Origin: a virus
Taxonomy: Duplodnaviria; Heunggongvirae; Uroviricota; Caudoviricetes
DNA: 64,000 bases
IMG/VR virus record: IMGVR_UViG_2909314774_000001
Strand: one strand, 5' to 3'
Program-made: the position numbers and the translations under genes
The notes under the pieces: generated by a model
The model's database searches: none
Seen by the model: only the letters and a program-made list of their open reading frames with translations
What the model was told of the DNA's origin: nothing
Shown: positions 2,594-56,897 of the stretch, piece by piece
How positions within the stretch are numbered: position 1 is the first letter of the stretch
Layout: each line of letters starts with the position of its first letter

Positions 2594-3694
2594 TCACACT
2601 GCGCGGAATGCGATTTCGCCAGGTATTACTTCACCTTGCCAATACATTTGGGCAGCAACGCGATCTGCGAGGTCACGATAAATAGCCGTAAATTCGCTAT
2701 CTGGACGACTAATAACGGTTGGTGTTCCGTTATCCAGATCTTCACGAAGAGAGATATGAAGTGGCATTTGGCCTAACAACTGCGTGTTGTATTTCTCGGC
2801 CAGTTTCTGTGCGCCACCGGTGCCAAAAATTGGCTCGTGATGACCGCAGTTACTGCAAATATGCACACTCATGTTTTCGACGATACCCAGTACCGGCACT
2901 TCGACTTTTTCGAACATCACAATGCCTTTCTTCGCATCGATCAGCGCGATGTCTTGCGGCGTAGTTACCACAACCGCACCAGTTACAGGAATGTTCTGCG
3001 CCAGCGTCAACTGAATATCACCAGTGCCCGGCGGCATATCGAGAACGAGATAGTCCAGATCAGGCCATAGAGTTTCCTGCAACATCTGCATCAGCGCCTT
3101 GCTGGCCATCGGTCCACGCCACACCATTGCATTGTCGTCGGTGACCAGATAACCAATAGAGTTGGTTGCCAGGCCATGAGACATGATAGGTGCCATGTGA
3201 GTACCGTCAGGTGAGGTTGGACGTTGGTTTTCCGCGCCCAGCATGGTTGGAATTGATGGACCATAGATATCGGCATCCAAAATACCAACTTTCGCACCTT
3301 CAGCAGCCAACGCCAGTGCCAGGTTCACCGCCGTGGAGGATTTACCCACGCCGCCCTTGCCTGAGCTGACGGCGATAATGTTCTTAACGCCATTAATGCC
3401 TGGTTGGTTTTTGACGCGCTTAAGCGTGGCAATGTTGTACGACAGCTTCCAGTCAATAGCCTTTGCGCCAGTGATACGGAGCAGATCACCACTACATTGC
3501 TCTTTCAGGTCTTCAAAAGGCTTATTCCACACGAAAGGCATGATTAGTTCGACATGCAGTGTGTCATCCATCAACGCAACATGGTGTAACGCTTTAAGCG
3601 TAGTCAGGTTGTGTTTCAGGGTTGGGTGCTGAAAATTAGCCAGCGTACCGGCTACCATTGCTCTCAGGGCATCCGGCGATTTGGACTCGCTCAT
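2594..3694 (-). CDS. apbC: iron-sulfur cluster carrier ATPase ApbC/Mrp
   Basis: 366-aa translation near-identical to E. coli Mrp (SSGKGGVGKSS P-loop, CxxC motif); divergent from metG as in E. coli. Confidence 0.95.
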   Translation of the reverse strand: MSESKSPDALRAMVAGTLANFQHPTLKHNLTTLKALHHVALMDDTLHVELIMPFVWNKPFEDLKEQCSGDLLRITGAKAIDWKLSYNIATLKRVKNQPGINGVKNIIAVSSGKGGVGKSSTAVNLALALAAEGAKVGILDADIYGPSIPTMLGAENQRPTSPDGTHMAPIMSHGLATNSIGYLVTDDNAMVWRGPMASKALMQMLQETLWPDLDYLVLDMPPGTGDIQLTLAQNIPVTGAVVVTTPQDIALIDAKKGIVMFEKVEVPVLGIVENMSVHICSNCGHHEPIFGTGGAQKLAEKYNTQLLGQMPLHISLREDLDNGTPTVISRPDSEFTAIYRDLADRVAAQMYWQGEVIPGEIAFRAV

Positions 3695-3851
3695 CCCGTC
3701 TCCTTTATTTTAATTTGCGCAATTGTCGCCTTGTAGTGTACTCCAGCTACGACATTTAATCATTTATGAGAAATGCTGTTATCACATGGCAGACATAAGG
3801 CCATTTTGTTACTATCAAGCCCCTTTTCACTACAAAGAAGTAATGCCTACT

Positions 3852-5885
3852 ATGACCCAAGTCGCGAAGAAAATTCTGGTGACGTGCGCGCTGCCGTACG
3901 CTAACGGCTCAATCCACCTCGGCCATATGCTGGAGCACATCCAGGCTGATGTCTGGGTTCGTTACCAGCGAATGCGCGGCCACGAGGTTAATTTCATCTG
4001 TGCCGACGATGCCCACGGTACGCCGATCATGCTGAAAGCACAGCAGCTTGGTATCACACCGGAGCAGATGATTGGCGAAATGAGTCAGGAACACCAGACT
4101 GATTTCGCAGGCTTTAACATCAGCTATGACAACTATCACTCGACGCACAGCGAAGAGAACCGTCAGTTGTCTGAGCTTATCTATACTCGCCTGAAAGAGA
4201 ACGGTTTTATTAAAAACCGCACTATCTCTCAGTTGTACGACCCGGAAAAAGGCATGTTCCTGCCGGATCGTTTTGTAAAAGGCACCTGCCCGAAATGTAA
4301 AGCGCCAGATCAATACGGCGATAACTGTGAAGTCTGCGGCGCGACCTACAGCCCGACTGAACTGATTGAGCCGAAATCGGTAGTTTCTGGCGCTACGCCG
4401 GTAATGCGTGATTCTGAACACTTCTTCTTTGATCTGCCCTCTTTCAGCGAAATGTTGCAGGCATGGACCCGCAGCGGCGCGTTGCAGGAGCAGGTGGCGA
4501 ACAAAATGCAGGAATGGTTTGAATCCGGCCTGCAACAGTGGGATATCTCCCGCGATGCGCCTTACTTCGGTTTTGAAATTCCGAACGCGCCGGGCAAATA
4601 TTTCTACGTCTGGCTGGACGCGCCGATTGGCTACATGGGTTCCTTCAAGAATCTGTGCGACAAACGCGGCGATACCACCAGCTTCGATGAATACTGGAAG
4701 AAAGACTCCACCGCCGAGCTGTACCACTTCATCGGTAAAGATATTGTTTACTTCCACAGCCTGTTCTGGCCTGCCATGCTGGAAGGCAGCAACTTCCGCA
4801 AGCCGACCAACTTGTTTGTTCACGGCTATGTGACGGTGAACGGCGCGAAGATGTCCAAGTCTCGCGGCACCTTTATTAAAGCCAGCACCTGGCTGAATCA
4901 TTTTGACGCCGACAGCCTGCGTTACTACTACACTGCGAAACTCTCTTCGCGCATTGATGATATCGATCTCAACCTGGAGGATTTCGTTCAGCGCGTGAAT
5001 GCCGATATCGTGAACAAAGTGGTTAACCTGGCCTCCCGTAATGCAGGCTTTATCAACAAGCGTTTTGACGGCGTGCTGGCAAGCGAACTGGCTGACCCGC
5101 AACTGTACAAAACCTTTACTGATGCCGCTGAAGTGATTGGCGAAGCATGGGAAAGCCGCGAATTTGGTAAAGCTATCCGTGAAATCATGGCATTGGCTGA
5201 CCTGGCTAACCGCTATGTCGATGAACAGGCTCCGTGGGTGGTGGCGAAGCAGGAAGGACGCGATGCCGATCTGCAGGCGATTTGCTCTATGGGCATTAAC
5301 CTGTTCCGCGTGCTGATGACGTACCTGAAGCCGGTACTGCCGAAACTGACTGAACGTGCAGAAGCATTCCTGAATACAGAACTGACCTGGGATGGTATCC
5401 AGCAACCGCTGCTGGGCCATAAAGTGAATCCGTTCAAGGCACTGTATAACCGTATCGATATGAAGCAGGTTGAAGCACTGGTGGAAGCATCTAAAGAAGA
5501 AGTGAAAGCAGCTGCCACGCCAGTAACTGGCCCGCTGGCAGATGATCCGATTCAGGAAACCATCACCTTTGATGACTTCGCCAAAGTTGACCTGCGCGTG
5601 GCGCTGATTGAAAACGCAGAGTTTGTAGAAGGTTCTGACAAACTGCTTCGCCTGACGCTGGATCTCGGTGGTGAAAAGCGTAATGTCTTCTCAGGCATCC
5701 GTTCCGCTTATCCAGATCCACAGGCACTGATTGGTCGTCACACCATTATGGTGGCTAACCTGGCACCACGTAAAATGCGCTTCGGTATCTCTGAAGGCAT
5801 GGTGATGGCTGCTGGCCCTGGCGGGAAAGATATCTTCCTGTTAAGCCCGGATGTCGGTGCTAAACCTGGCCACCAGGTTAAGTAA
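3852..5885 (+). CDS. metG: methionyl-tRNA synthetase
   Basis: translation from [26 protein letters not shown] matches E. coli MetG almost residue for residue (HIGH and KMSKS motifs); the ORF-track start at 3723 is an upstream in-frame extension. Confidence 0.97.
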
Positions 5886-5934: not shown

Positions 5935-6046
5935 ATAGACACAACCCCTTCTGACTTTAACAAACCCTAAAACAATTTGTTTTCTACCTTTTGTTGATTG
6001 AGATAATAAGCCACATAAGAAAACAAATTGTTTCGGAGTGGTTGAA

Positions 6047-6346
6047 ATGTTGAACATTACCCAAGCCTACCAGGTGGCATTGATCAGTTCATCTCATACA
6101 TCAGAGGAAGATGCTCGCCGATTCATGATCGCAAGCAATGAGCTGGATTGGGTTTCACAAATTGACGGCGGTTGTATTGTCCACGCCGGGTTACAGGATG
6201 ATGTCTGGAAAGAGGACTTGCGTCGATATGGTATATCCGAAGGCGCAATTGCTAACATTCAGAAAGTACTTGATGTAGGCTTTGACTGTGTACATTTTGA
6301 TTGTGGTGCGCCGATCGTTGAAGGGCTTGAGTGCTGGTGTTGGTAG
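6047..6346 (+). CDS. hypothetical protein, first gene of the foreign element (Cys-rich C-terminus ..HFDCGAPIVEGLECWCW)
   Basis: ORF preceded by two copies of the class-A palindrome (5969-5984, 6019-6034); ATG at 6047 preferred over the track start at 6038. Confidence 0.5.
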   Translation: MLNITQAYQVALISSSHTSEEDARRFMIASNELDWVSQIDGGCIVHAGLQDDVWKEDLRRYGISEGAIANIQKVLDVGFDCVHFDCGAPIVEGLECWCW

Positions 6347-7707: not shown

Positions 7708-8148
7708 GTGTAATTAGCTTAATCAATCAGTTGATAATGGCGGTCACAATTTGATTCTTTTCTATAAGAACCCGTTGATCGCCACTACTCCCATCCCATA
7801 CCAGCAATCACATCATTAAATATCAATAGGTTAACGTTGTTTATACCAATAAGAAAACAACTAAATAACAGATCAACGAAACATCAACGCTTTCTCCCGA
7901 TTTGGTCTAAAAAATTGACGTTATCACACATCACTTCTTATACCCGTAATTCTACGCAGCAGATAGCGCCACAGCGTCCAAATTTCACCACAAACGACTC
8001 AACACACTACCAACAAAAACACACGCTCAAAATCGCTCCCGTTGCGTTACACAACCATATAAACAACTTATTTTCAGGCATAACAAAACAACTAAATAAC
8101 ACATATGACATTCCCCAAAACAACCAACCTCTTTATGGCAGGCTACCG

Positions 8149-8930: not shown

Positions 8931-9300
8931 TAGCGAGAGGGAGAGTTGCGGCTACCCACCTGTAATGTGCGGGAAGAAGAGAGGCGCTCACGTGCAGGCG
9001 GACTAACTTACCGTTGGACTCCCTCTGAATGCCCAACTACAGCGTAATTGTGCCAGAGAGTCAGCGGGTCACAATCGATTTCAGTAGGTTTTCGGGGAGA
9101 AGAAAATTCTGCCCACCAGCCCTGCGGCGCGCGTAGGGCAGAATATCGTAAATACTGGTTCCGTGTCGTTCCCGGATACTCACTACCCAGCCTGGCTTTC
9201 CCGACATAAAATCCTTTTCCGCCTTTGTCTTATTGCGATAATAACACCAACAAGTAAACAACATGTTTAGACGTTATATAAACGAAGTGAGGATGAAGAG

Positions 9301-9547: not shown

Positions 9548-9657
9548 GTCGCTATTAACCTCCGGGCAGCGCAGCACCGTAACGATATACTTTGTGGCCG
9601 TTTTCTTACTGGTATTGTTTACGCAATTCAGAAAACAACATGTTTAAGGATTGCGTT

Positions 9658-9987: not shown

Positions 9988-10141
9988 CCCCAACCAAAGC
10001 CAGCATTGCTGGCTTAACTTAATCTGTAGCCGCAGGGAAGAACCTGCATATCGCTCATGCGCCTGATCAATATGCTTTGTAGCCGCTTTCTTACTGGTAT
10101 TATTTACGCCATTGAGAAAACAAGTTGTTTACGGAGTTGTG

Positions 10142-10516: not shown

Positions 10517-10579
10517 TATTGTAAGTACATACTTACGATCATAGAATATAAAAATAACCAATACACTACGGAGAGTGAA

Positions 10580-11020: not shown

Positions 11021-11092
11021 TAACAATTTGTTTTCTGCCTTATCTGATTTGTGAAAATGATTTCACTGAAGCAACTTAATAAGGAAACCATC

Positions 11093-11467: not shown

Positions 11468-11796
11468 ATATGGGCGATTTCAAGAAACGCCTGAAGGAAA
11501 GAGTCGAGATGGTCAGAAAGCAAAACGCCTCTTCTGTCATCAGATACGCAAGGCAGTTTAGTCGCAACAACAAATCAGTTGAGGAAAAGATCCTTAGCGT
11601 AATCGGGCGATAATTATTAAGGCCACCAGCATTGGTGGTCTTAAATGACTTTTAATAACCGAAGGTTAGTTTGAAACCTGGCTATCAACTTCCAGAACCT
11701 TTCTTGTGTATTCAGCCTGTATTAACTTCTTTTATGCCTTATCTACACTGCGATAATTACATCAACAAGAAAACAACATGTTTACGCAGTGAGGAT

Positions 11797-12210: not shown

Positions 12211-12287
12211 ACTTTGACGCCTTATTCGTACAACGATAATTAACACCAACAAGAAAACAATTTGTTATTTACGATAAGGAATTAATC

Positions 12288-14909: not shown

Positions 14910-15434
14910 TCAAAAAGGCAAAATTCGTTCAACCCAATCGAACAAAACAACTATTTTTCTACCGTTCTCGACACGTAGTGTAACCTGACAAGCATCTGCG
15001 CCTGCTGACACCCCCTCAATTTCACGGCCATCCGCCATGTACACCCTTATAGATTTGTTTGCTTTGTAGGCTTGGTTGCAAATTGCAAAAAAATCGCGGC
15101 GTGATGGCCGATTATCGACATAATCAGGGTGAACTGTTAGTCGACCTTTGAAATCGTGAGCGATACTGTCAACCACACCTGATTCAATTGTACTAATGCG
15201 TTCAAGTGGGAGCCTTATACGATTTTCTTTGTCAAAAGGGGCTGGGCAAAGGTCAACTTTGTTACGAGATGGCATGAGGCCATAAACGTACATGCAAAAC
15301 GCCTGGCCATCTTCGAGAGTGACCCTTACAGGAATTTGTTCTCTGCGCCAGAACATCAGTAGTTTTTCAACGTTAGTGTAATCTCGCGGCCAGAGTTCAG
15401 CTTGGATACCGTAGGTAATATCTTTGGTTGTCAT
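14910..15434 (-). CDS. hypothetical protein (about 175 aa from the internal Met MTTKDITYG)
   Basis: ORF-track frame; start chosen to abut the upstream lipoprotein gene. Confidence 0.45.
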   Translation of the reverse strand: MTTKDITYGIQAELWPRDYTNVEKLLMFWRREQIPVRVTLEDGQAFCMYVYGLMPSRNKVDLCPAPFDKENRIRLPLERISTIESGVVDSIAHDFKGRLTVHPDYVDNRPSRRDFFAICNQAYKANKSIRVYMADGREIEGVSAGADACQVTLRVENGRKIVVLFDWVERILPF

Positions 15435-15929: not shown

Positions 15930-16208
15930 TTATTTTAATCTGCTTAATAGCGTTTCGAGATCTTCCTTTGTCATATTAGAGTTCTCATAGATACGCATGA
16001 TTTTCTCACGAGTCTTAGCGGAAGCCCCGACAGAAGATATAACCTTGTCAAAGTCGGCCATTGTCAATTGTTCCAGAATGGTATTTATGACTTCAGCCTT
16101 AGACATTTTGATATTTTTTTCTTTTAGTTTCACTTGAAACTTTCCAAGTTTGTCATTGGCCTTATCAGACAATGCTACCTGACAGTAAGTTGTTTTCTTT
16201 TCACTCAT
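15930..16208 (-). CDS. hypothetical small protein (92 aa)
   Basis: ORF tightly packed between the helicase and lipoprotein genes. Confidence 0.5.
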   Translation of the reverse strand: MSEKKTTYCQVALSDKANDKLGKFQVKLKEKNIKMSKAEVINTILEQLTMADFDKVISSVGASAKTREKIMRIYENSNMTKEDLETLLSRLK

Positions 16209-17770: not shown

Positions 17771-17852
17771 AAACCTCTTTCCTTAGTGCCTTTTGTATGT
17801 TATTTGGCTATTATAATAAGTAAGTGATTACTTAGTGGATTGTAGCAATAAA

Positions 17853-18533
17853 ATGGATGTAAAAATCACGATTTTGCAGGTTGATGTTGCCAACCTTCGC
17901 CCGAATACCTGGAACACCAATTCGGTTGGTGCGCAGAATTTTGAAAAACTGAAAGGTTCTATCGAAAAATTGGGCTTTTTTAAGCCAATTTTGGCTCGTG
18001 AACTTGAAGATGGATTTTTTGAAATCCTCGGCGGCGAACATCGCTGGCGTGCTGCTATTGAGCAAGGAATTTCAACGGTTCCGGTGCTTTCTGTGGGCAA
18101 AATTAGCGATGTCGTAGCTAAACAGATGTCACTGGTGGACAACGAGCGATACGGTGAAGACGACCAAATCGCATTGCAACGCTTCATTGAAGAAATTCAG
18201 TCAGAACTTGACTATCAACTGTCTGAAATCGCCCCGTATGACGACGAAATCTCGATGGTTTTAGCAAAAGAGGCGGCAATCGACCTTGAAGCACTGGAGG
18301 CGTTGTCTCGTGGTAGTGATGAGCCTGTCGATACCGACAAACGAGAGAAAACCGAACGTGTGGGGGCGGAACATCAGACCATGCGCTTCAAAGTAACTTT
18401 CGATGCGTCAGATCGTGTTGCAGAAACCATAAAAAACATCATCAAAGAGCAGGCTATTAACACCGGTAATGAAATGGAGAACGCTGGTGAGGCTCTGGTG
18501 TGGCTGGTCGACTACTACAAGGAGCGTATGTAA
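17853..18533 (+). CDS. ParB/Srx-fold (ParB N-terminal-like) protein 1
   Basis: GGEHRWRAA motif resembling the ParB GERRWRA box; start at MDVKITIL preferred over the track start. Confidence 0.6.
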   Translation: MDVKITILQVDVANLRPNTWNTNSVGAQNFEKLKGSIEKLGFFKPILARELEDGFFEILGGEHRWRAAIEQGISTVPVLSVGKISDVVAKQMSLVDNERYGEDDQIALQRFIEEIQSELDYQLSEIAPYDDEISMVLAKEAAIDLEALEALSRGSDEPVDTDKREKTERVGAEHQTMRFKVTFDASDRVAETIKNIIKEQAINTGNEMENAGEALVWLVDYYKERM

Positions 18534-19201
18534 TGACCAAAAAGTTTGAAATCGTATATCGCGACCCGGCAGATCTTATTCCCTATGAGATGAATGCCAA
18601 AAAGCATGATGAACAGCAGATCCGAGATCTGGCCGCAGCCATTAAAAAGCGCGGATTTGACCAGCCAATTACGGTCGATAAGAACGACGTAATTATTACT
18701 GGCCACGGCCGCCGTGAGGCTGCAATTTTTGCTGGACTTGAGCGCGTGCCGGTTATTGTTCGCGATGATCTGAGTGATGACGAGGTACGTGCAAAGCGCC
18801 TTGAAGATAACCGACTTGCCAGCATTGATTACGATGCAATTAAGCTACAGAAAGAGCTTGAGTCGCTTGTTCTGGACGATATCGAGGTTTTCGGCTTCGA
18901 AGAGCGTGAGTTGAACGTTCTCGTTGGCAGTATGACAGAAGAAATGGACACCGACTCGCTAGTTATCGATCTTGGCGAAGAAACTAAACGACAGAAGGAT
19001 GAACACACCGAGATCAGTCGTGAAGTTGCAGCGGAAGAAGTACGTGTTGTCGACGTATTGGGCTTTAAAACGCTCCCTGCTGGCTCTGCCATTGTTGTTG
19101 GTGATTTGCTTGCCCATATGGAAGAAATGACGGGAGAAAGCGGGGTAGACGCATTTGTGGCATATGCGGAGAAGATCTCTTCCGGGGAGATGGCTGCATG
19201 A
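18533..19201 (+). CDS. ParB/Srx-fold (ParB N-terminal-like) protein 2
   Basis: ITGHGRREAA motif; start overlaps the previous stop (TAATG). Confidence 0.6.
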   Translation: MTKKFEIVYRDPADLIPYEMNAKKHDEQQIRDLAAAIKKRGFDQPITVDKNDVIITGHGRREAAIFAGLERVPVIVRDDLSDDEVRAKRLEDNRLASIDYDAIKLQKELESLVLDDIEVFGFEERELNVLVGSMTEEMDTDSLVIDLGEETKRQKDEHTEISREVAAEEVRVVDVLGFKTLPAGSAIVVGDLLAHMEEMTGESGVDAFVAYAEKISSGEMAA

Positions 19202-20759: not shown

Positions 20760-21026
20760 ATGACGTTAACCGATAAACAAAAGGACATCATCAAAACGCT
20801 CAATCTCGGTTATGAGCGAGGTCATCTACTTGACCTGGACGAATTGCTTGAAGTTTTGCCGTACAAGACAACCAAGCAAAGTATCCAGTTCTCAATTCGC
20901 GCTCTGATAAAAAAGGGGCTGGTGGAGAAAGGGCATACGCGCCAACGCAGTGACAATCGCTATCACCGCCGAACTCTTGGGTTAACCACTTTAGGTCGAG
21001 CCAAAGCGAAGTTACTGGTGATGTAA
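20760..21026 (+). CDS. small basic protein, possible winged-helix DNA-binding
   Basis: 88-aa ORF, Lys/Arg-rich C-terminus. Confidence 0.4.
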   Translation: MTLTDKQKDIIKTLNLGYERGHLLDLDELLEVLPYKTTKQSIQFSIRALIKKGLVEKGHTRQRSDNRYHRRTLGLTTLGRAKAKLLVM

Positions 21027-21048: not shown

Positions 21049-21106
21049 GACCTGCTTCTGTATATATAAATAATAAGTAACTTATTAAATATATACAGAA
21101 GCAGGC
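21049..21106. repeat. large near-perfect palindrome (CCTGCTTCTGTATATAT ... ATATATACAGAAGCAGG) with AATAAGTAACTTATT core
   Basis: 17-bp arms are exact reverse complements; a diverged second copy lies at 55941-56000. Confidence 0.8.
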
Positions 21107-21222
21107 TTAATAAGACATGCCCAGACCTAATTAAACACCCCAGAAAACAAGTTGGTTAGCAGATTCAGTAAACAAGTTGTTTTAGAGCGCATGGACGCGC
21201 TCTGTGTGTTTTAGAGGGATCT

Positions 21223-52828: not shown

Positions 52829-53146
52829 GTATTCCTCCTGATGGCCGTGATGTAGGAAGGCCATCAATCTCCTCTGTTCAAACTGAGTTTTCGACTCAAA
52901 AATTACTTTAAAAGGCTATAGCCCATTACGTGTGCATTATCAAATTGTGTACGGCATATCACCGTACTTGTAATATAGAGGTCATTGTTACTTTTTTCAA
53001 CAGACAAATACAAGCTATGATTGCCAATTGTTAATCACAACCTACCATTTAACCTTTACACCGCAGCCGTAGGCATTTAGGCTATATCACATATAAGAAA
53101 ACAAGTTGTTTCAGACGATAATTATATACGCAAAGGGAACTCTCCA

Positions 53147-53815
53147 ATGACCAAGATCTTTGTGGTTGGCGGCACAAAGGGCGGGCCTGGCAAATCCACC
53201 GTTGCCCAGCAAATTGCCGTTTGCCTGAAAGTCAAAAAGAAGAAGAAGGTTTATATTACCGATATAGATATTCAGCGCACGACAACGAGCTGGTGTGAAG
53301 ACCGTCGACAGAACGAAGACCTTGAGCTGATTCCTTTTGCATACGTTCAGGATGACATCATTAAGCACCTAAAATCGCTTCAGGGTAGAGCTGAGTTTGT
53401 AGTGGTAGATGCCGGTGGCTTTGACTCCGAAATTCAGCGACAAGCGATGCTGATGGCTGACGTTATCATTATCCCGCTTCGTCCTAAGCGTCGTGATTTG
53501 AAATCTCTGCGTGACATTGATCCTATTATCGACAATGTTCGTAATGTAAACGATAAAGTGAAGGTCCGCGCGGTCATGAACCAGTGCCCGGCTTTGCCAT
53601 CACAAGTGTCTCGCATTCTGGCGGCTAAAGAGATTGTCGAGACGTTTGGCATCGAGTCTGCGCCAGTCAATCTATATAACCGCAACGTCTATGATGATGC
53701 GGAAGAGTCTGGTCGTTCTATCTTTGAAATGACCGGTAGCGAGCGCGACAAAAAGGCGGAAGCCGAGTTTGAAGAATTTGTAGATTATCTGTTGAGTCTG
53801 GAGGAAGAAGAATAA
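53147..53815 (+). CDS. ParA-type partition ATPase (small type Ib, ParF-like)
   Basis: deviant Walker A GGTKGGPGKST; 222 aa; class-A palindrome 53096-53112 upstream. Confidence 0.8.
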   Translation: MTKIFVVGGTKGGPGKSTVAQQIAVCLKVKKKKKVYITDIDIQRTTTSWCEDRRQNEDLELIPFAYVQDDIIKHLKSLQGRAEFVVVDAGGFDSEIQRQAMLMADVIIIPLRPKRRDLKSLRDIDPIIDNVRNVNDKVKVRAVMNQCPALPSQVSRILAAKEIVETFGIESAPVNLYNRNVYDDAEESGRSIFEMTGSERDKKAEAEFEEFVDYLLSLEEEE

Positions 53816-54174
53816 TGTCCATGAAAATGGGTGACCTAGCAAAGCGCAAAGAGCCTGATGCACCGGCTAAGAACACAACTCCTTTGCGCCAACCAGTCAG
53901 ACCACAGGGACGCCCGACTCGTGGCAAAGAGAAAATTAAAAGCCGCACAATGTCACTGGAGGACGAATACTTCGAACTGCTGGAGATGATGAAGTTCATC
54001 CCTCGCTTCGAGAAATTCACCCGCTCTGATGTGATTCGTGCTGCTATTTTCCATCTTGCGGAGAAGACACCGCAGGAAATCGAGGACATCGTGAAACTTA
54101 ACGAGGCGATCACAGCTGCCGATGTCACGATGCGTACCGATGAAATTAAACGCGAGTTGATGAAGAAAGGGTGA
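53815..54174 (+). CDS. ParG-like small DNA-binding partner (putative RHH)
   Basis: 119-aa ORF translationally coupled to parA-like gene; basic N-terminal tail. Confidence 0.5.
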   Translation: MSMKMGDLAKRKEPDAPAKNTTPLRQPVRPQGRPTRGKEKIKSRTMSLEDEYFELLEMMKFIPRFEKFTRSDVIRAAIFHLAEKTPQEIEDIVKLNEAITAADVTMRTDEIKRELMKKG

Positions 54175-54225: not shown

Positions 54226-55932
54226 ATGGAATCGATAGAAGTATTTTTAAAAAATTTTTTGGACTCAGATCATCGGGTTGCTGTCATAAAAGGAAATTGG
54301 GGAGTAGGTAAAACGCATTATTGGAATAGCTTTTATACTAAACATTCTAAAAAATTAGATTTTAATGCATATTCATATGTTTCTTTGTTTGGAATAAATT
54401 CTATTGGAGACATTAAAAAAGCTCTTTATCATTGTGCCACACCAATTAATGAAAAGAAATATAAAGAACTGATTTTATCTGAAACGGATCGAACTATGAT
54501 TCGTTATAGAAATGGGTTTTGGGGATGGTTGAAATACAACTCCTTGTCAAAATTTTTAATACATTTTGGAAAGAACGATTTTTTTGGGTTCAAAACTGAT
54601 AATCTGCTGTCATCTCTTGAGTATAAATTTGTTAATAATTATTTGGTTTGCATTGATGATATTGAACGAAAAGGTAGTGCGCTAGAAATTAAAGAGATTA
54701 TGGGGGTAATTGATGAGTTGGCAAGAAGAAAAAATTGCAAGGTTGTTCTAATATTAAATGAAGATAACTTACATGAAGAAACTGCACAACAACAGTTTTT
54801 AGAGTATAGAGAAAAAATAATTGATGTGGAAATAAAATACGATCCCACGCCTGAGAAAAACTTAAGAAAAGTTTTTTATGAGACTGACCCTGATTTTCTT
54901 TTGTTAAAAAACCTAGTAAATGATTTAAACATCAAAAACATTAGAATATTAAATAAAATAAAATCATCTCTAGTTATATTTAGAGATGTGCTAAAGTTAG
55001 CAGAGGATAAGGTTAGAGAAAGTTTTATTAATAGATTGGTCTTATTTTCAGTGGTTTACTATTTTGGTGTTCCTAGCGTTGATTATGCTTCATTTAAGGA
55101 GTCAATCAAAAATATACATGCATTCGACTATATGTTAGATGATAAAGATGAAAAGGAAGAAGTTAACTCTGTATATTCATTTGTTAATAGCCTTGATGTT
55201 ATTTATGAACGAGCAGAAAGTGCTTTCGATGATGATATAGATTTTTACCTTAAGAACGGTTATGTTTCTTCTGAAAGCAATATTCTAAATATAATAAAAG
55301 AAAAAAATGAACAATATAGAGATAATAGGGTTTTATGTGAGGTTTATAAAATTTGGGATGTTTTTAGAAACTCTTTTAAAGATAATGAATCAGAGTTTAT
55401 TTTTCAAATTGAGCGCGTAATTAACGATAGTCTGTTGCGTATACCAATTGGACAGTTCGTAGGTTTAATAAATGTCCTAATTAAATTGGATAGAGATTGT
55501 AATAATATTATAGAGGCATATGCAGATGCTTTTGTTAATAAAGAAAATGCGTATGCTACATTTAATTCTTTGCGAGTAGAGATCTTCGGAAATGAAGAAT
55601 TAGGTTTCAGAATTGAAAAAAAATTGAAAGATAGAAATCCAGATGACTATAACTTAGATAAAATTATAAAAAAAATAGCTGGTGGAAGATTTAACCATAG
55701 TGATGTGAATATTCTTAACAGTTTTTCTAAAGATGATTACGTAAACTGGATATTATCCTGTGATCAGGATGCTTTGAATTTAGTAGAAGAGACTATGCTC
55801 AAGTTCAAGGGTATGCAACACCCGACAGACGAACAGAAGAGCATCACTGATAAAGCAATAGAAGCTTTGGAGGAAGTTGCTTCAAAATCAACACTTAATA
55901 AGCTGCGTGTTAATAAAATACTCAATCATTAA
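54226..55932 (+). CDS. KAP-family P-loop NTPase
   Basis: Walker A GNWGVGKTHYW (the G.WG.GK(S/T) form typical of KAP NTPases), Walker B LVCIDDIER; strongly AT-rich gene. Confidence 0.75.
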   Translation: MESIEVFLKNFLDSDHRVAVIKGNWGVGKTHYWNSFYTKHSKKLDFNAYSYVSLFGINSIGDIKKALYHCATPINEKKYKELILSETDRTMIRYRNGFWGWLKYNSLSKFLIHFGKNDFFGFKTDNLLSSLEYKFVNNYLVCIDDIERKGSALEIKEIMGVIDELARRKNCKVVLILNEDNLHEETAQQQFLEYREKIIDVEIKYDPTPEKNLRKVFYETDPDFLLLKNLVNDLNIKNIRILNKIKSSLVIFRDVLKLAEDKVRESFINRLVLFSVVYYFGVPSVDYASFKESIKNIHAFDYMLDDKDEKEEVNSVYSFVNSLDVIYERAESAFDDDIDFYLKNGYVSSESNILNIIKEKNEQYRDNRVLCEVYKIWDVFRNSFKDNESEFIFQIERVINDSLLRIPIGQFVGLINVLIKLDRDCNNIIEAYADAFVNKENAYATFNSLRVEIFGNEELGFRIEKKLKDRNPDDYNLDKIIKKIAGGRFNHSDVNILNSFSKDDYVNWILSCDQDALNLVEETMLKFKGMQHPTDEQKSITDKAIEALEEVASKSTLNKLRVNKILNH

Positions 55933-56854: not shown

Positions 56855-56897
56855 CTAATACTAGAAAACAATTTGTTTAAAAAACAAAGGAAAGCAC

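Follow-up and report, generated by a model that had tools for sequence, protein, structure and literature searches.

An operator-like, promoter-proximal palindrome recurs across SSU5-like phage-plasmids of Enterobacterales

The window analyzed here, a 64-kb stretch of DNA, is part of an SSU5-like phage-plasmid whose E. coli relatives include pSTEC409_1 and phage Cyrano (pLF82). A 7.1-kb region around the sites described below is 97% identical to plasmid pSTEC409_1 and to Cyrano (pLF82), and matches to it were retrieved from 700 plasmids of ∼100–115 kb in Escherichia, Klebsiella, Enterobacter, Salmonella, and Citrobacter. In order, the window holds Ea-like genes, a region of small genes, a helicase/FljA-like operon, the packaging and structural genes, parA, and dnaB. 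An earlier note on this DNA had placed a pair of palindromes (5969/6019) before the first gene of the element; however, the upstream genes metG and apbC are phage-plasmid genes as well. Since the records of annotated relatives list apbC and metG within the phage-plasmids, we assign the window to such an element. The alternative of a chromosomal island beside the host metG was rejected, as the entire window, including metG and apbC, aligns to phage-plasmids. Cyrano itself is a plasmid prophage that is present in 5.5 copies, makes virions, and can be induced with ciprofloxacin (PMC9928086).

Some of the cargo of this element deserves a brief description. The apbC–metG segment (2594–5885) is a divergent pair encoding an iron-sulfur carrier protein and a full methionyl-tRNA synthetase, and the annotations of pSTEC409_1, Cyrano, and PhiR41_1 show it as well; the Cyrano lysogen expresses apbC, and metG hardly at all. 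An S24 peptidase of 129 aa (2167–2556) is UmuD-like, has no DNA-binding domain, and begins at profile position 21 of 140 (MGFPSPAADY...), and therefore resembles an already-cleaved UmuD'. Its Cyrano homolog ranks among the highest-expressed prophage genes (log2 7–12). Besides, a gene for a 568-aa KAP-family P-loop NTPase (54226–55932), with 31% G+C versus roughly 47% in its surroundings, is inserted after the parA operon, where Cyrano has a different gene. It is probably acquired cargo and possibly a defence gene.

The palindrome that is the subject of this work (class A) was recovered at all 12 positions given in the earlier note. In front of a forward-strand gene for a DUF5983-domain protein (ATG at 6047), a reverse copy at 5970–5985 (minus strand; top strand AAACAATTTGTTTTCT) and a forward copy at 6018–6033 (plus strand; AGAAAACAAATTGTTT) lie 51 bp apart from centre to centre. 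Between them is an extended −10 element predicted from the sequence (TGAGATAAT, 5999–6007, plus strand; hexamer 6002–6007). The core of the reverse copy ends 19 nt before this hexamer and is centred at about −38; the forward copy is centred at about +14 and is directly followed by a GGAG Shine–Dalgarno sequence. An additional, degenerate copy on the minus strand (8061–8073, AAACAACTTATTT) has no recognizable promoter and is accompanied by a conserved A/C-rich stretch. This stretch (…ggcataacaaaacaaccaaataacac…, within 8000–8110) follows the degenerate copy, is shared by relatives in E. coli, Salmonella, and Klebsiella, and is coding according to the Cyrano annotation (CYRAN_103) and non-coding by appearance.

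Further sites are strung along the region of small genes. On the plus strand, they lie at 9253–9268 (AGTAAACAACATGTTT; −10 TGcGATAAT at 9237–9242; ATG 9301), 9630–9645 (AGAAAACAACATGTTT; −10 TGgTATTGT at 9613–9618; ATG 9658, with an AAGGA Shine–Dalgarno sequence abutting the site), 10115–10130 (AGAAAACAAGTTGTTT; −10 TGgTATTAT at 10098–10103; ATG 10142), 11768–11783 (again AGAAAACAACATGTTT; −10 TGcGATAAT at 11752–11757; ATG 11803), and 12252–12267 (AGAAAACAATTTGTTA; −10 GATAAT at 12235–12240; ATG 12288). The minus-strand copy at 11021–11036 (top strand TAACAATTTGTTTTCT) is preceded by a terminator hairpin and stands 19 nt before an extended −10 element (TGTGAAAAT). Between 9000 and 12800, the small genes form a row in which each is a unit of its own, with terminator, extended −10, class A site, and ribosome-binding site, an arrangement that is unusually modular.

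Outside this region, two tandem forward copies, 25 bp apart, precede the small terminase gene terS on the plus strand (21142–21157, AGAAAACAAGTTGGTT; 21167–21182, AGTAAACAAGTTGTTT). Directly after the second comes a terminator-like hairpin with a T-rich tail (21183–21214, plus strand; terS ATG 21223), which sits between the tandem sites and the ribosome-binding site and whose stem is retained in relatives, suggesting that expression of the late operon may require antitermination. The last two copies, both on the plus strand, are found before parA (53096–53111, AGAAAACAAGTTGTTT; ATG 53147) and before a DnaB-like helicase gene (56863–56878, AGAAAACAATTTGTTT; ATG 56898).

Other palindromes share these regions. 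Between the gene of an 88-aa protein and the terS promoter, a 47-bp near-perfect palindrome (CTTCTGTATATATAAATAATAAGTAACTTATTAAATATATACAGAAG, 21055–21103) holds a class-B-like core and may be a packaging or regulatory site. Two AGGCTATAGCC-type palindromes upstream of parA (52913–52926 and 53079–53092, the second directly before the class A site) may constitute a par operator or centromere. A second dispersed class, aTAAGTA-N2-6-TACTTAt, occurs in the window at 10523, 17818, 30112, 44313, 59518, and 62871; its copies are found in the region of the divergent helicase/ParB-like promoters and ahead of tail and tail-fibre genes and a few others. Conservation of this class extends to Cyrano, SSU5, and a divergent Klebsiella plasmid, and some of the genes behind it (CYRAN_12, CYRAN_34) are expressed at higher levels in the lysogen than their neighbors.

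Regarding its sequence, the class A palindrome had been described with two bases between its arms. The corresponding pattern, AAACAANNTTGTTT, has no match; there is a single central base instead, and the true core is AAACAA-N-TTGTTT (or AAACA-N3-TGTTT), a 13-base palindrome usually with AGA in front. It does not conform to the LexA (SOS) box, CTGT-N8-ACAG. Exact matches to AAACANNNTGTTT number nine in the window against 0.18 expected, a count that none of 100 shuffles reached. With up to one mismatch allowed, AAACAANTTGTTT is present 13 times against 0.56 expected, including the degenerate copy at 8061. Among all 6-N-6 palindromes in the window, those with the arm AAACAA are the commonest (six copies, with two for the runner-up arm). 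The consensus of 66 sites from four genomes, oriented by their flanks, reads aAGAAAACAA-N-TTGTTTa, with nine mismatches in the AGA-side arm and 20 in the opposite one, and the better-kept AGA-side arm faces the promoter in forward and reverse copies alike. Full genomes of relatives carry 18–20 copies.

The sites hold a fixed position relative to predicted promoters. The hexamers preceding forward copies (GATAAT, TATTAT, and TATTGT) are −10-like and mostly preceded by TG, while a standard −35/−10 scan recovered none of these promoters and no usable −35 was apparent. In 22 of 50 oriented units from four genomes, a −10-like hexamer ends 13–14 nt before the core (14 of the 22 with TG); none has one at 15–19 nt, and a second sharp peak at 20–21 nt corresponds to the reverse copies. 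In the latter (top strand AAACAA-N-TTGTTTTCT), 19 nt separate the end of the site from the −10 element, which would put the centre near −38; they often come after the terminator of the preceding gene. Given this fixed spacing, and with the start assumed 7 nt after the −10 element, forward copies would be centred near +14 with the AGA at +4/+5, so that the +14 and the −38 position both depend on where the −10 hexamers are predicted. Pairs in which one −10 element lies between a reverse and a forward copy, with 51 bp from centre to centre, were seen at 5970/6021 and at several promoters in relatives. By comparison, the distance from the end of the core to the start codon is variable, at 11–40 nt for nine forward copies in the window, which agrees with the 10–45 nt stated in the earlier note; in three of these nine, no more than 2 nt, if any, separate the motif from the Shine–Dalgarno sequence. 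Taken together, the spacing to the predicted extended −10, the reverse copies at about −38, and the 51-bp pairs are in line with the earlier proposal of an operator near the transcription start, and the motif does mark a set of promoters and 5' regions across one mobile element.

This marking is confined to the element. Allowing up to one mismatch, we found no copy in 50 kb of E. coli chromosome, none in 80 kb of other enterobacterial loci, and none in the window's initial 5.9 kb, where the host-derived apbC–metG segment lies. Matches to a 40-nt consensus of promoter plus motif numbered 880 and came from 245 of the 5,426 complete E. coli genomes searched (median of four matches per genome), all of them on plasmids and none chromosomal. 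Since the 130 kb of sampled chromosome lack the motif and the cassette is found on plasmids only, the host chromosome does not carry the palindrome at a density similar to that of the element, and the suggested confinement holds. Likewise, 21 of the 22 IMG/VR loci with at least two copies are SSU5-like, that is, homologous to Cyrano, the exception (L117) having two copies far apart. The same IMG/VR search returned no unrelated phages bearing the motif, whose shared genes could have offered a clue to the binder.

Within the family, the same sites stand before the same genes in Cyrano and PhiR41_1 (E. coli), SSU5 (Salmonella), pJN2-26 and p4727 (Klebsiella), and pMT1 (Y. pestis). Even the divergent Klebsiella plasmid NZ_CP101792, whose proteins are often just 35–50% identical to those of the window, carries 15 perfect copies. 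At orthologous promoters the arms are invariant while central base and flanks vary, a pattern that an alignment of the terS leader reproduces. This leader contains two tandem copies in E. coli, Salmonella, and Yersinia elements and one in Klebsiella, the difference being a clean 25-bp unit. One orthologous site occurs as mirror images, AAACAACATGTTT in the window (the 9630 site) and AAACATGTTGTTT in Cyrano. Because even the most divergent lineage retains the motif unaltered, covariation with the site cannot be used to identify its binder.

Does the palindrome act as DNA or as RNA? The earlier note had left room for an RNA hairpin in the 5' untranslated region (5'UTR). We found the motif alone to have a minimum free energy (MFE) of 0 kcal/mol, and of eight leaders, just two have the hairpin in their best structure. 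None of them exceeds its own shuffles in stability (UTR z-scores not significant), and no compensatory changes exist, the variants being one-sided mismatches in a single arm; among forward copies, U-G-compatible and C-A-incompatible changes both occur. In addition, reverse copies lie outside the transcript of their own promoter. A structured RNA hairpin operator was therefore ruled out by its energy and by the absence of compensatory changes, and the same instability and non-compensatory variation favor an operator in duplex DNA. Since reverse copies lie outside that transcript and the spacing is fixed to the −10 element rather than to the ribosome-binding site, a two-fold symmetric DNA binder is favored in turn. 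That the strong arm faces the promoter in both orientations would be natural for a DNA site and not for a one-strand RNA. Further support comes from the enrichment of the motif and its restriction to the element, from a conservation that resembles a footprint, and from a two-fold symmetry that leaves the central base free. On balance, we lean, with modest confidence, towards a double-stranded DNA operator for one regulator, which is probably a dimer and most likely a product of the element itself. The palindrome has the form expected for the dimeric factor that the earlier note invoked. While the motif, its restriction to the element, its geometry, and its conservation are shown here, binding on DNA, repression, and the nature of the binder are inferred.

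Read in this manner, the roughly 20 palindromes per genome of SSU5-like phage-plasmids would be double-stranded operators bound by one sequence-specific regulator. Their targets would be sigma-70 promoters of the extended −10 type without a good −35. In a forward copy (AGAAAACAA-N-TTGTTT), 10–11 nt after the −10 element and near +14, a bound protein might block open-complex formation or promoter escape. Where an inverted second copy lies near −38, the two sites would bracket the polymerase-binding region at a distance of 51 bp, or about five helical turns, such that cooperative binding could occur. The regulon would include the late packaging and structural operon (terS), dnaB, parA, nrdB, a cobT-like gene, and the row of small single-promoter genes. 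The likeliest role of the palindrome is that of a common switch site through which one regulator controls the lytic genes of the element.

Published expression data are consistent with repression, yet do not prove it. In the LF82/Cyrano transcriptome, the genes standing first behind the motif (CYRAN_1, 32, 47, 58, 70, 85, 87, 93, 101, 105, 106, 108, and 110) are at log2 2.3–6, with CYRAN_105 reaching up to log2 7.8 in the lysogen (PMC9928086). Since their −10 elements look constitutive while the genes are near the floor, something appears to hold the motif promoters down. The exception among motif genes is parA, which has a perfect site and yet is expressed at log2 5.2–10.1 (PMC9928086). On the other hand, most motif-less lytic genes are equally silent in the Cyrano lysogen (PMC9928086), so silence does not single out the motif.

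An RNA-level regulon that does without a hairpin has to be taken seriously, because the element encodes a full-length FljA-family protein that is present in every SSU5-like record and expressed in the lysogen. FljA is reported to block translation of fliC mRNA. The protein in question (14910–15431, minus strand; annotated as 'transcriptional regulator') matches PF03614 (FljA) over its full length (E=2.5e-84), its gene is found in all 12 SSU5-like phage records and on 830 plasmids, and its expression in the Cyrano lysogen (log2 4.2–8.1) exceeds that of lytic genes. No solved structure exists for the family; its members are predicted to consist of two tandem Hfq/Sm-like domains without a helix-turn-helix, and an N-terminal segment, DITYGxPAEVWPRDY, is nearly invariant. 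Such a protein could read the motif in the 5'UTR (about +5 to +20), block translation, and speed mRNA decay, as Salmonella FljA does on fliC, with the A-rich arm AGAAAACAA and the U-rich arm UUGUUU each lying single-stranded on an Hfq-like surface. Arms of this composition in 5'UTRs would suit an Hfq-like RNA binder of the kind that the element encodes; forward copies are sense-oriented in predicted 5'UTRs, with the Shine–Dalgarno sequence abutting in several, and the motif is asymmetric, with its AGA extension and stronger left arm. Even so, the reverse copies at about −38 fall outside the transcript of their promoter and present the complementary sequence on the coding strand with the same strong/weak-arm pattern, the spacing is fixed to the −10 element and not to the ribosome-binding site, and single-strand binding would need no exact complementarity between arms whose hairpin is unstable anyway. 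The motif is also unchanged where the FljA-like protein is only 36% identical, and the protein may merely repress host flagellin. A resemblance to the fliC leader was considered and dismissed: the shared 8-mer (CAAGTTGT in the Salmonella fliC 5'UTR, also in Citrobacter) fails to reach significance (P about 0.075) and does not occur in E. coli, whose fliC UTR has just 4 nt in common with the motif. Autoregulation of the FljA-like gene via the motif was ruled out as well, there being no class A copy upstream of it in five lineages. On these grounds, we think it unlikely that the FljA-family protein is what reads the motif. The wider proposal, in which the family would be tandem-Hfq global post-transcriptional repressors acting on at least 15 phage mRNAs in the plasmid state and Salmonella FljA a domesticated offshoot, strikes us as, if anything, more doubtful. 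Either way, the predicted tandem Hfq-like fold would offer a structural footing for what has long been known of FljA, namely that it acts post-transcriptionally.

Two further explanations dispense with an element-encoded regulator. Elements from Escherichia, Salmonella, Klebsiella, and Yersinia all carry one identical motif, even where most candidate regulators of the element are 35–54% identical, and a conserved host protein of Enterobacterales binding the palindrome would explain this. However, sampling of 130 kb of chromosome yielded no copy of the motif, and none of 5,426 E. coli chromosomes carries the cassette, so that a host regulator would have no evident chromosomal sites of this kind. 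We know of no host regulator with an AAACAA-N-TTGTTT site; the nearest one, the KdgR box (GAAACA-N-TGTTTC), differs by 2 bp in the spacing of its arms. A host binder thus seems improbable to us. We give as little credence to the idea that no trans-acting factor exists at all and that a promoter/leader cassette spread by duplication and recombination, its conserved part acting in cis, e.g. by enhancing translation through its A/U-rich sequence or by adjusting promoter escape as part of the initially transcribed sequence. Neighboring cassettes are indeed alike beyond the motif (GATAAT-aacaccaaca-AGAAAACAA at 9237, 11752, and 12235), and the change in terS copy number by a clean 25-bp unit between lineages shows that copies have recombined. 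Yet the spacer between −10 and motif and the central base vary freely and the arms do not, an enhancer would need neither dyad symmetry nor inverted copies upstream of the promoter, and the cassettes remain invariant across a divergence that takes flanking proteins down to 35% identity.

If, as we favor, a regulator encoded by the element binds the palindrome as DNA, several small proteins come into question. We have a weak preference for the 88-aa protein encoded just upstream of the terS double site (20760–21026, plus strand), which is predicted to resemble the N-terminal winged-helix domain of LexA. It matches Pfam LexA_DNA_bind across its full length (E=0.07) and ends at the LexA hinge position; in an hhalign comparison with LexA residues 1–87, P was 0.0015 at a probability of just 17%, and its profile retrieved nothing from the PDB. 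The residues of its predicted recognition helix are invariant and its identity is 78% in the most divergent lineage, a conservation that could just reflect its seat in a conserved packaging module. In the Cyrano lysogen, its gene is at log2 2.9–6.6, low but above its upstream neighbors. Another candidate, of 92 aa (15930–16208, minus strand; the CYRAN_117 homolog), has a ribbon-helix-helix-like N-terminal sequence pattern and is expressed at log2 6.3–9.9 in the lysogen according to the LF82 RNA-seq data; its AF2 model is poor (pLDDT 65) and a fold search was uninformative. The 119-aa protein encoded downstream of ParA (53815–54174, plus strand; CYRAN_29), selected by its sequence pattern, is expressed at log2 6.3–10.8 in the lysogen, is 51% identical in the divergent lineage, and is probably the centromere-binding partner of ParA. 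A 71-aa protein (62207–62422) completes the candidates within the window; it and the proteins of 88 and 119 aa are those put forward in the earlier note, which was a reasonable choice. CYRAN_45, an annotated repressor encoded outside the window, was set aside as an unlikely binder: it is absent from SSU5, is 56% identical in Klebsiella, and carries GGTAAG-NN-CTTACC rather than the class A motif in its own control region. Nothing ties the two ParB-like genes (17835–19201), which are silent in the lysogen, to the motif, and around parA, which has other palindromes, we found no repeat arrays that would indicate a centromere built of the class A motif.

A close precedent is provided by phage P1, whose C1 operators, 17 or more in number, are dispersed over the P1 genome; they are asymmetric 17-mers (ATTGCTCTAATAAATTT) to which C1 binds as a monomer. 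As in P1, a plasmid prophage here carries one short site at the predicted promoters of numerous lytic and accessory operons that lie apart from each other, the site facing either way and at times being paired, and the degree of dispersal is comparable (13 copies in the window, 18–20 per genome in relatives, and none in 130 kb of chromosome). In contrast to the P1 site, the present one is a 13-bp dyad with a one-sided 3-bp extension, and its consensus differs from the 17-mer. A second precedent is the O_B site of the IncP plasmid RK2 (TTTAGC-S-GCTAAA), recognized by KorB, a plasmid protein that controls a global regulon and also serves partition. Both sites are 13-bp palindromes of the 6-N-6 type, with about a dozen copies per replicon, some of them at about −39 of promoters. 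However, the sequences differ, most copies here are predicted to lie at +14, the lysogen does not express the two ParB-like genes, and the ParA partner is a small 119-aa protein. With FljA/fliC, the element shares a full-length FljA-family protein and the location of most motif copies in predicted 5'UTRs near ribosome-binding sites, whereas FljA has one known target as opposed to a regulon of 15 or more here, the fliC-leader similarity is not significant, and reverse copies and a fixed −10 spacing do not suit an RNA target. Finally, a dyad site centred 11–14 bp past the predicted start, with an auxiliary upstream site that would allow cooperative binding, recalls lac O1; this likeness is positional only, as there is no LacI-family protein and no sequence relation.

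Neither the motif nor an operator of any SSU5-group element turned up in our literature search, and recent reviews give no regulator or operator for the plasmid/lytic switch of this group. SSU5-like phage-plasmids include pHCM2 of S. Typhi, pMT1 of Y. pestis, and the pKpn and pSLy3 groups with resistance genes, and such elements are common in clinical Enterobacterales, with the FljA-like marker on 830 plasmids and the cassette in 245 of 5,426 complete E. coli genomes. In summary, the present work describes a family-wide, promoter-proximal, operator-like palindrome that defines a regulon of these important and little-studied phage-plasmids. The motif can serve as bait in pulldown experiments for the regulator and as a signature for recognizing these elements. 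By marking the late operon, replication, partition, and small genes with one invariant site, it offers a concrete handle on the switch between the plasmid and the lytic state.
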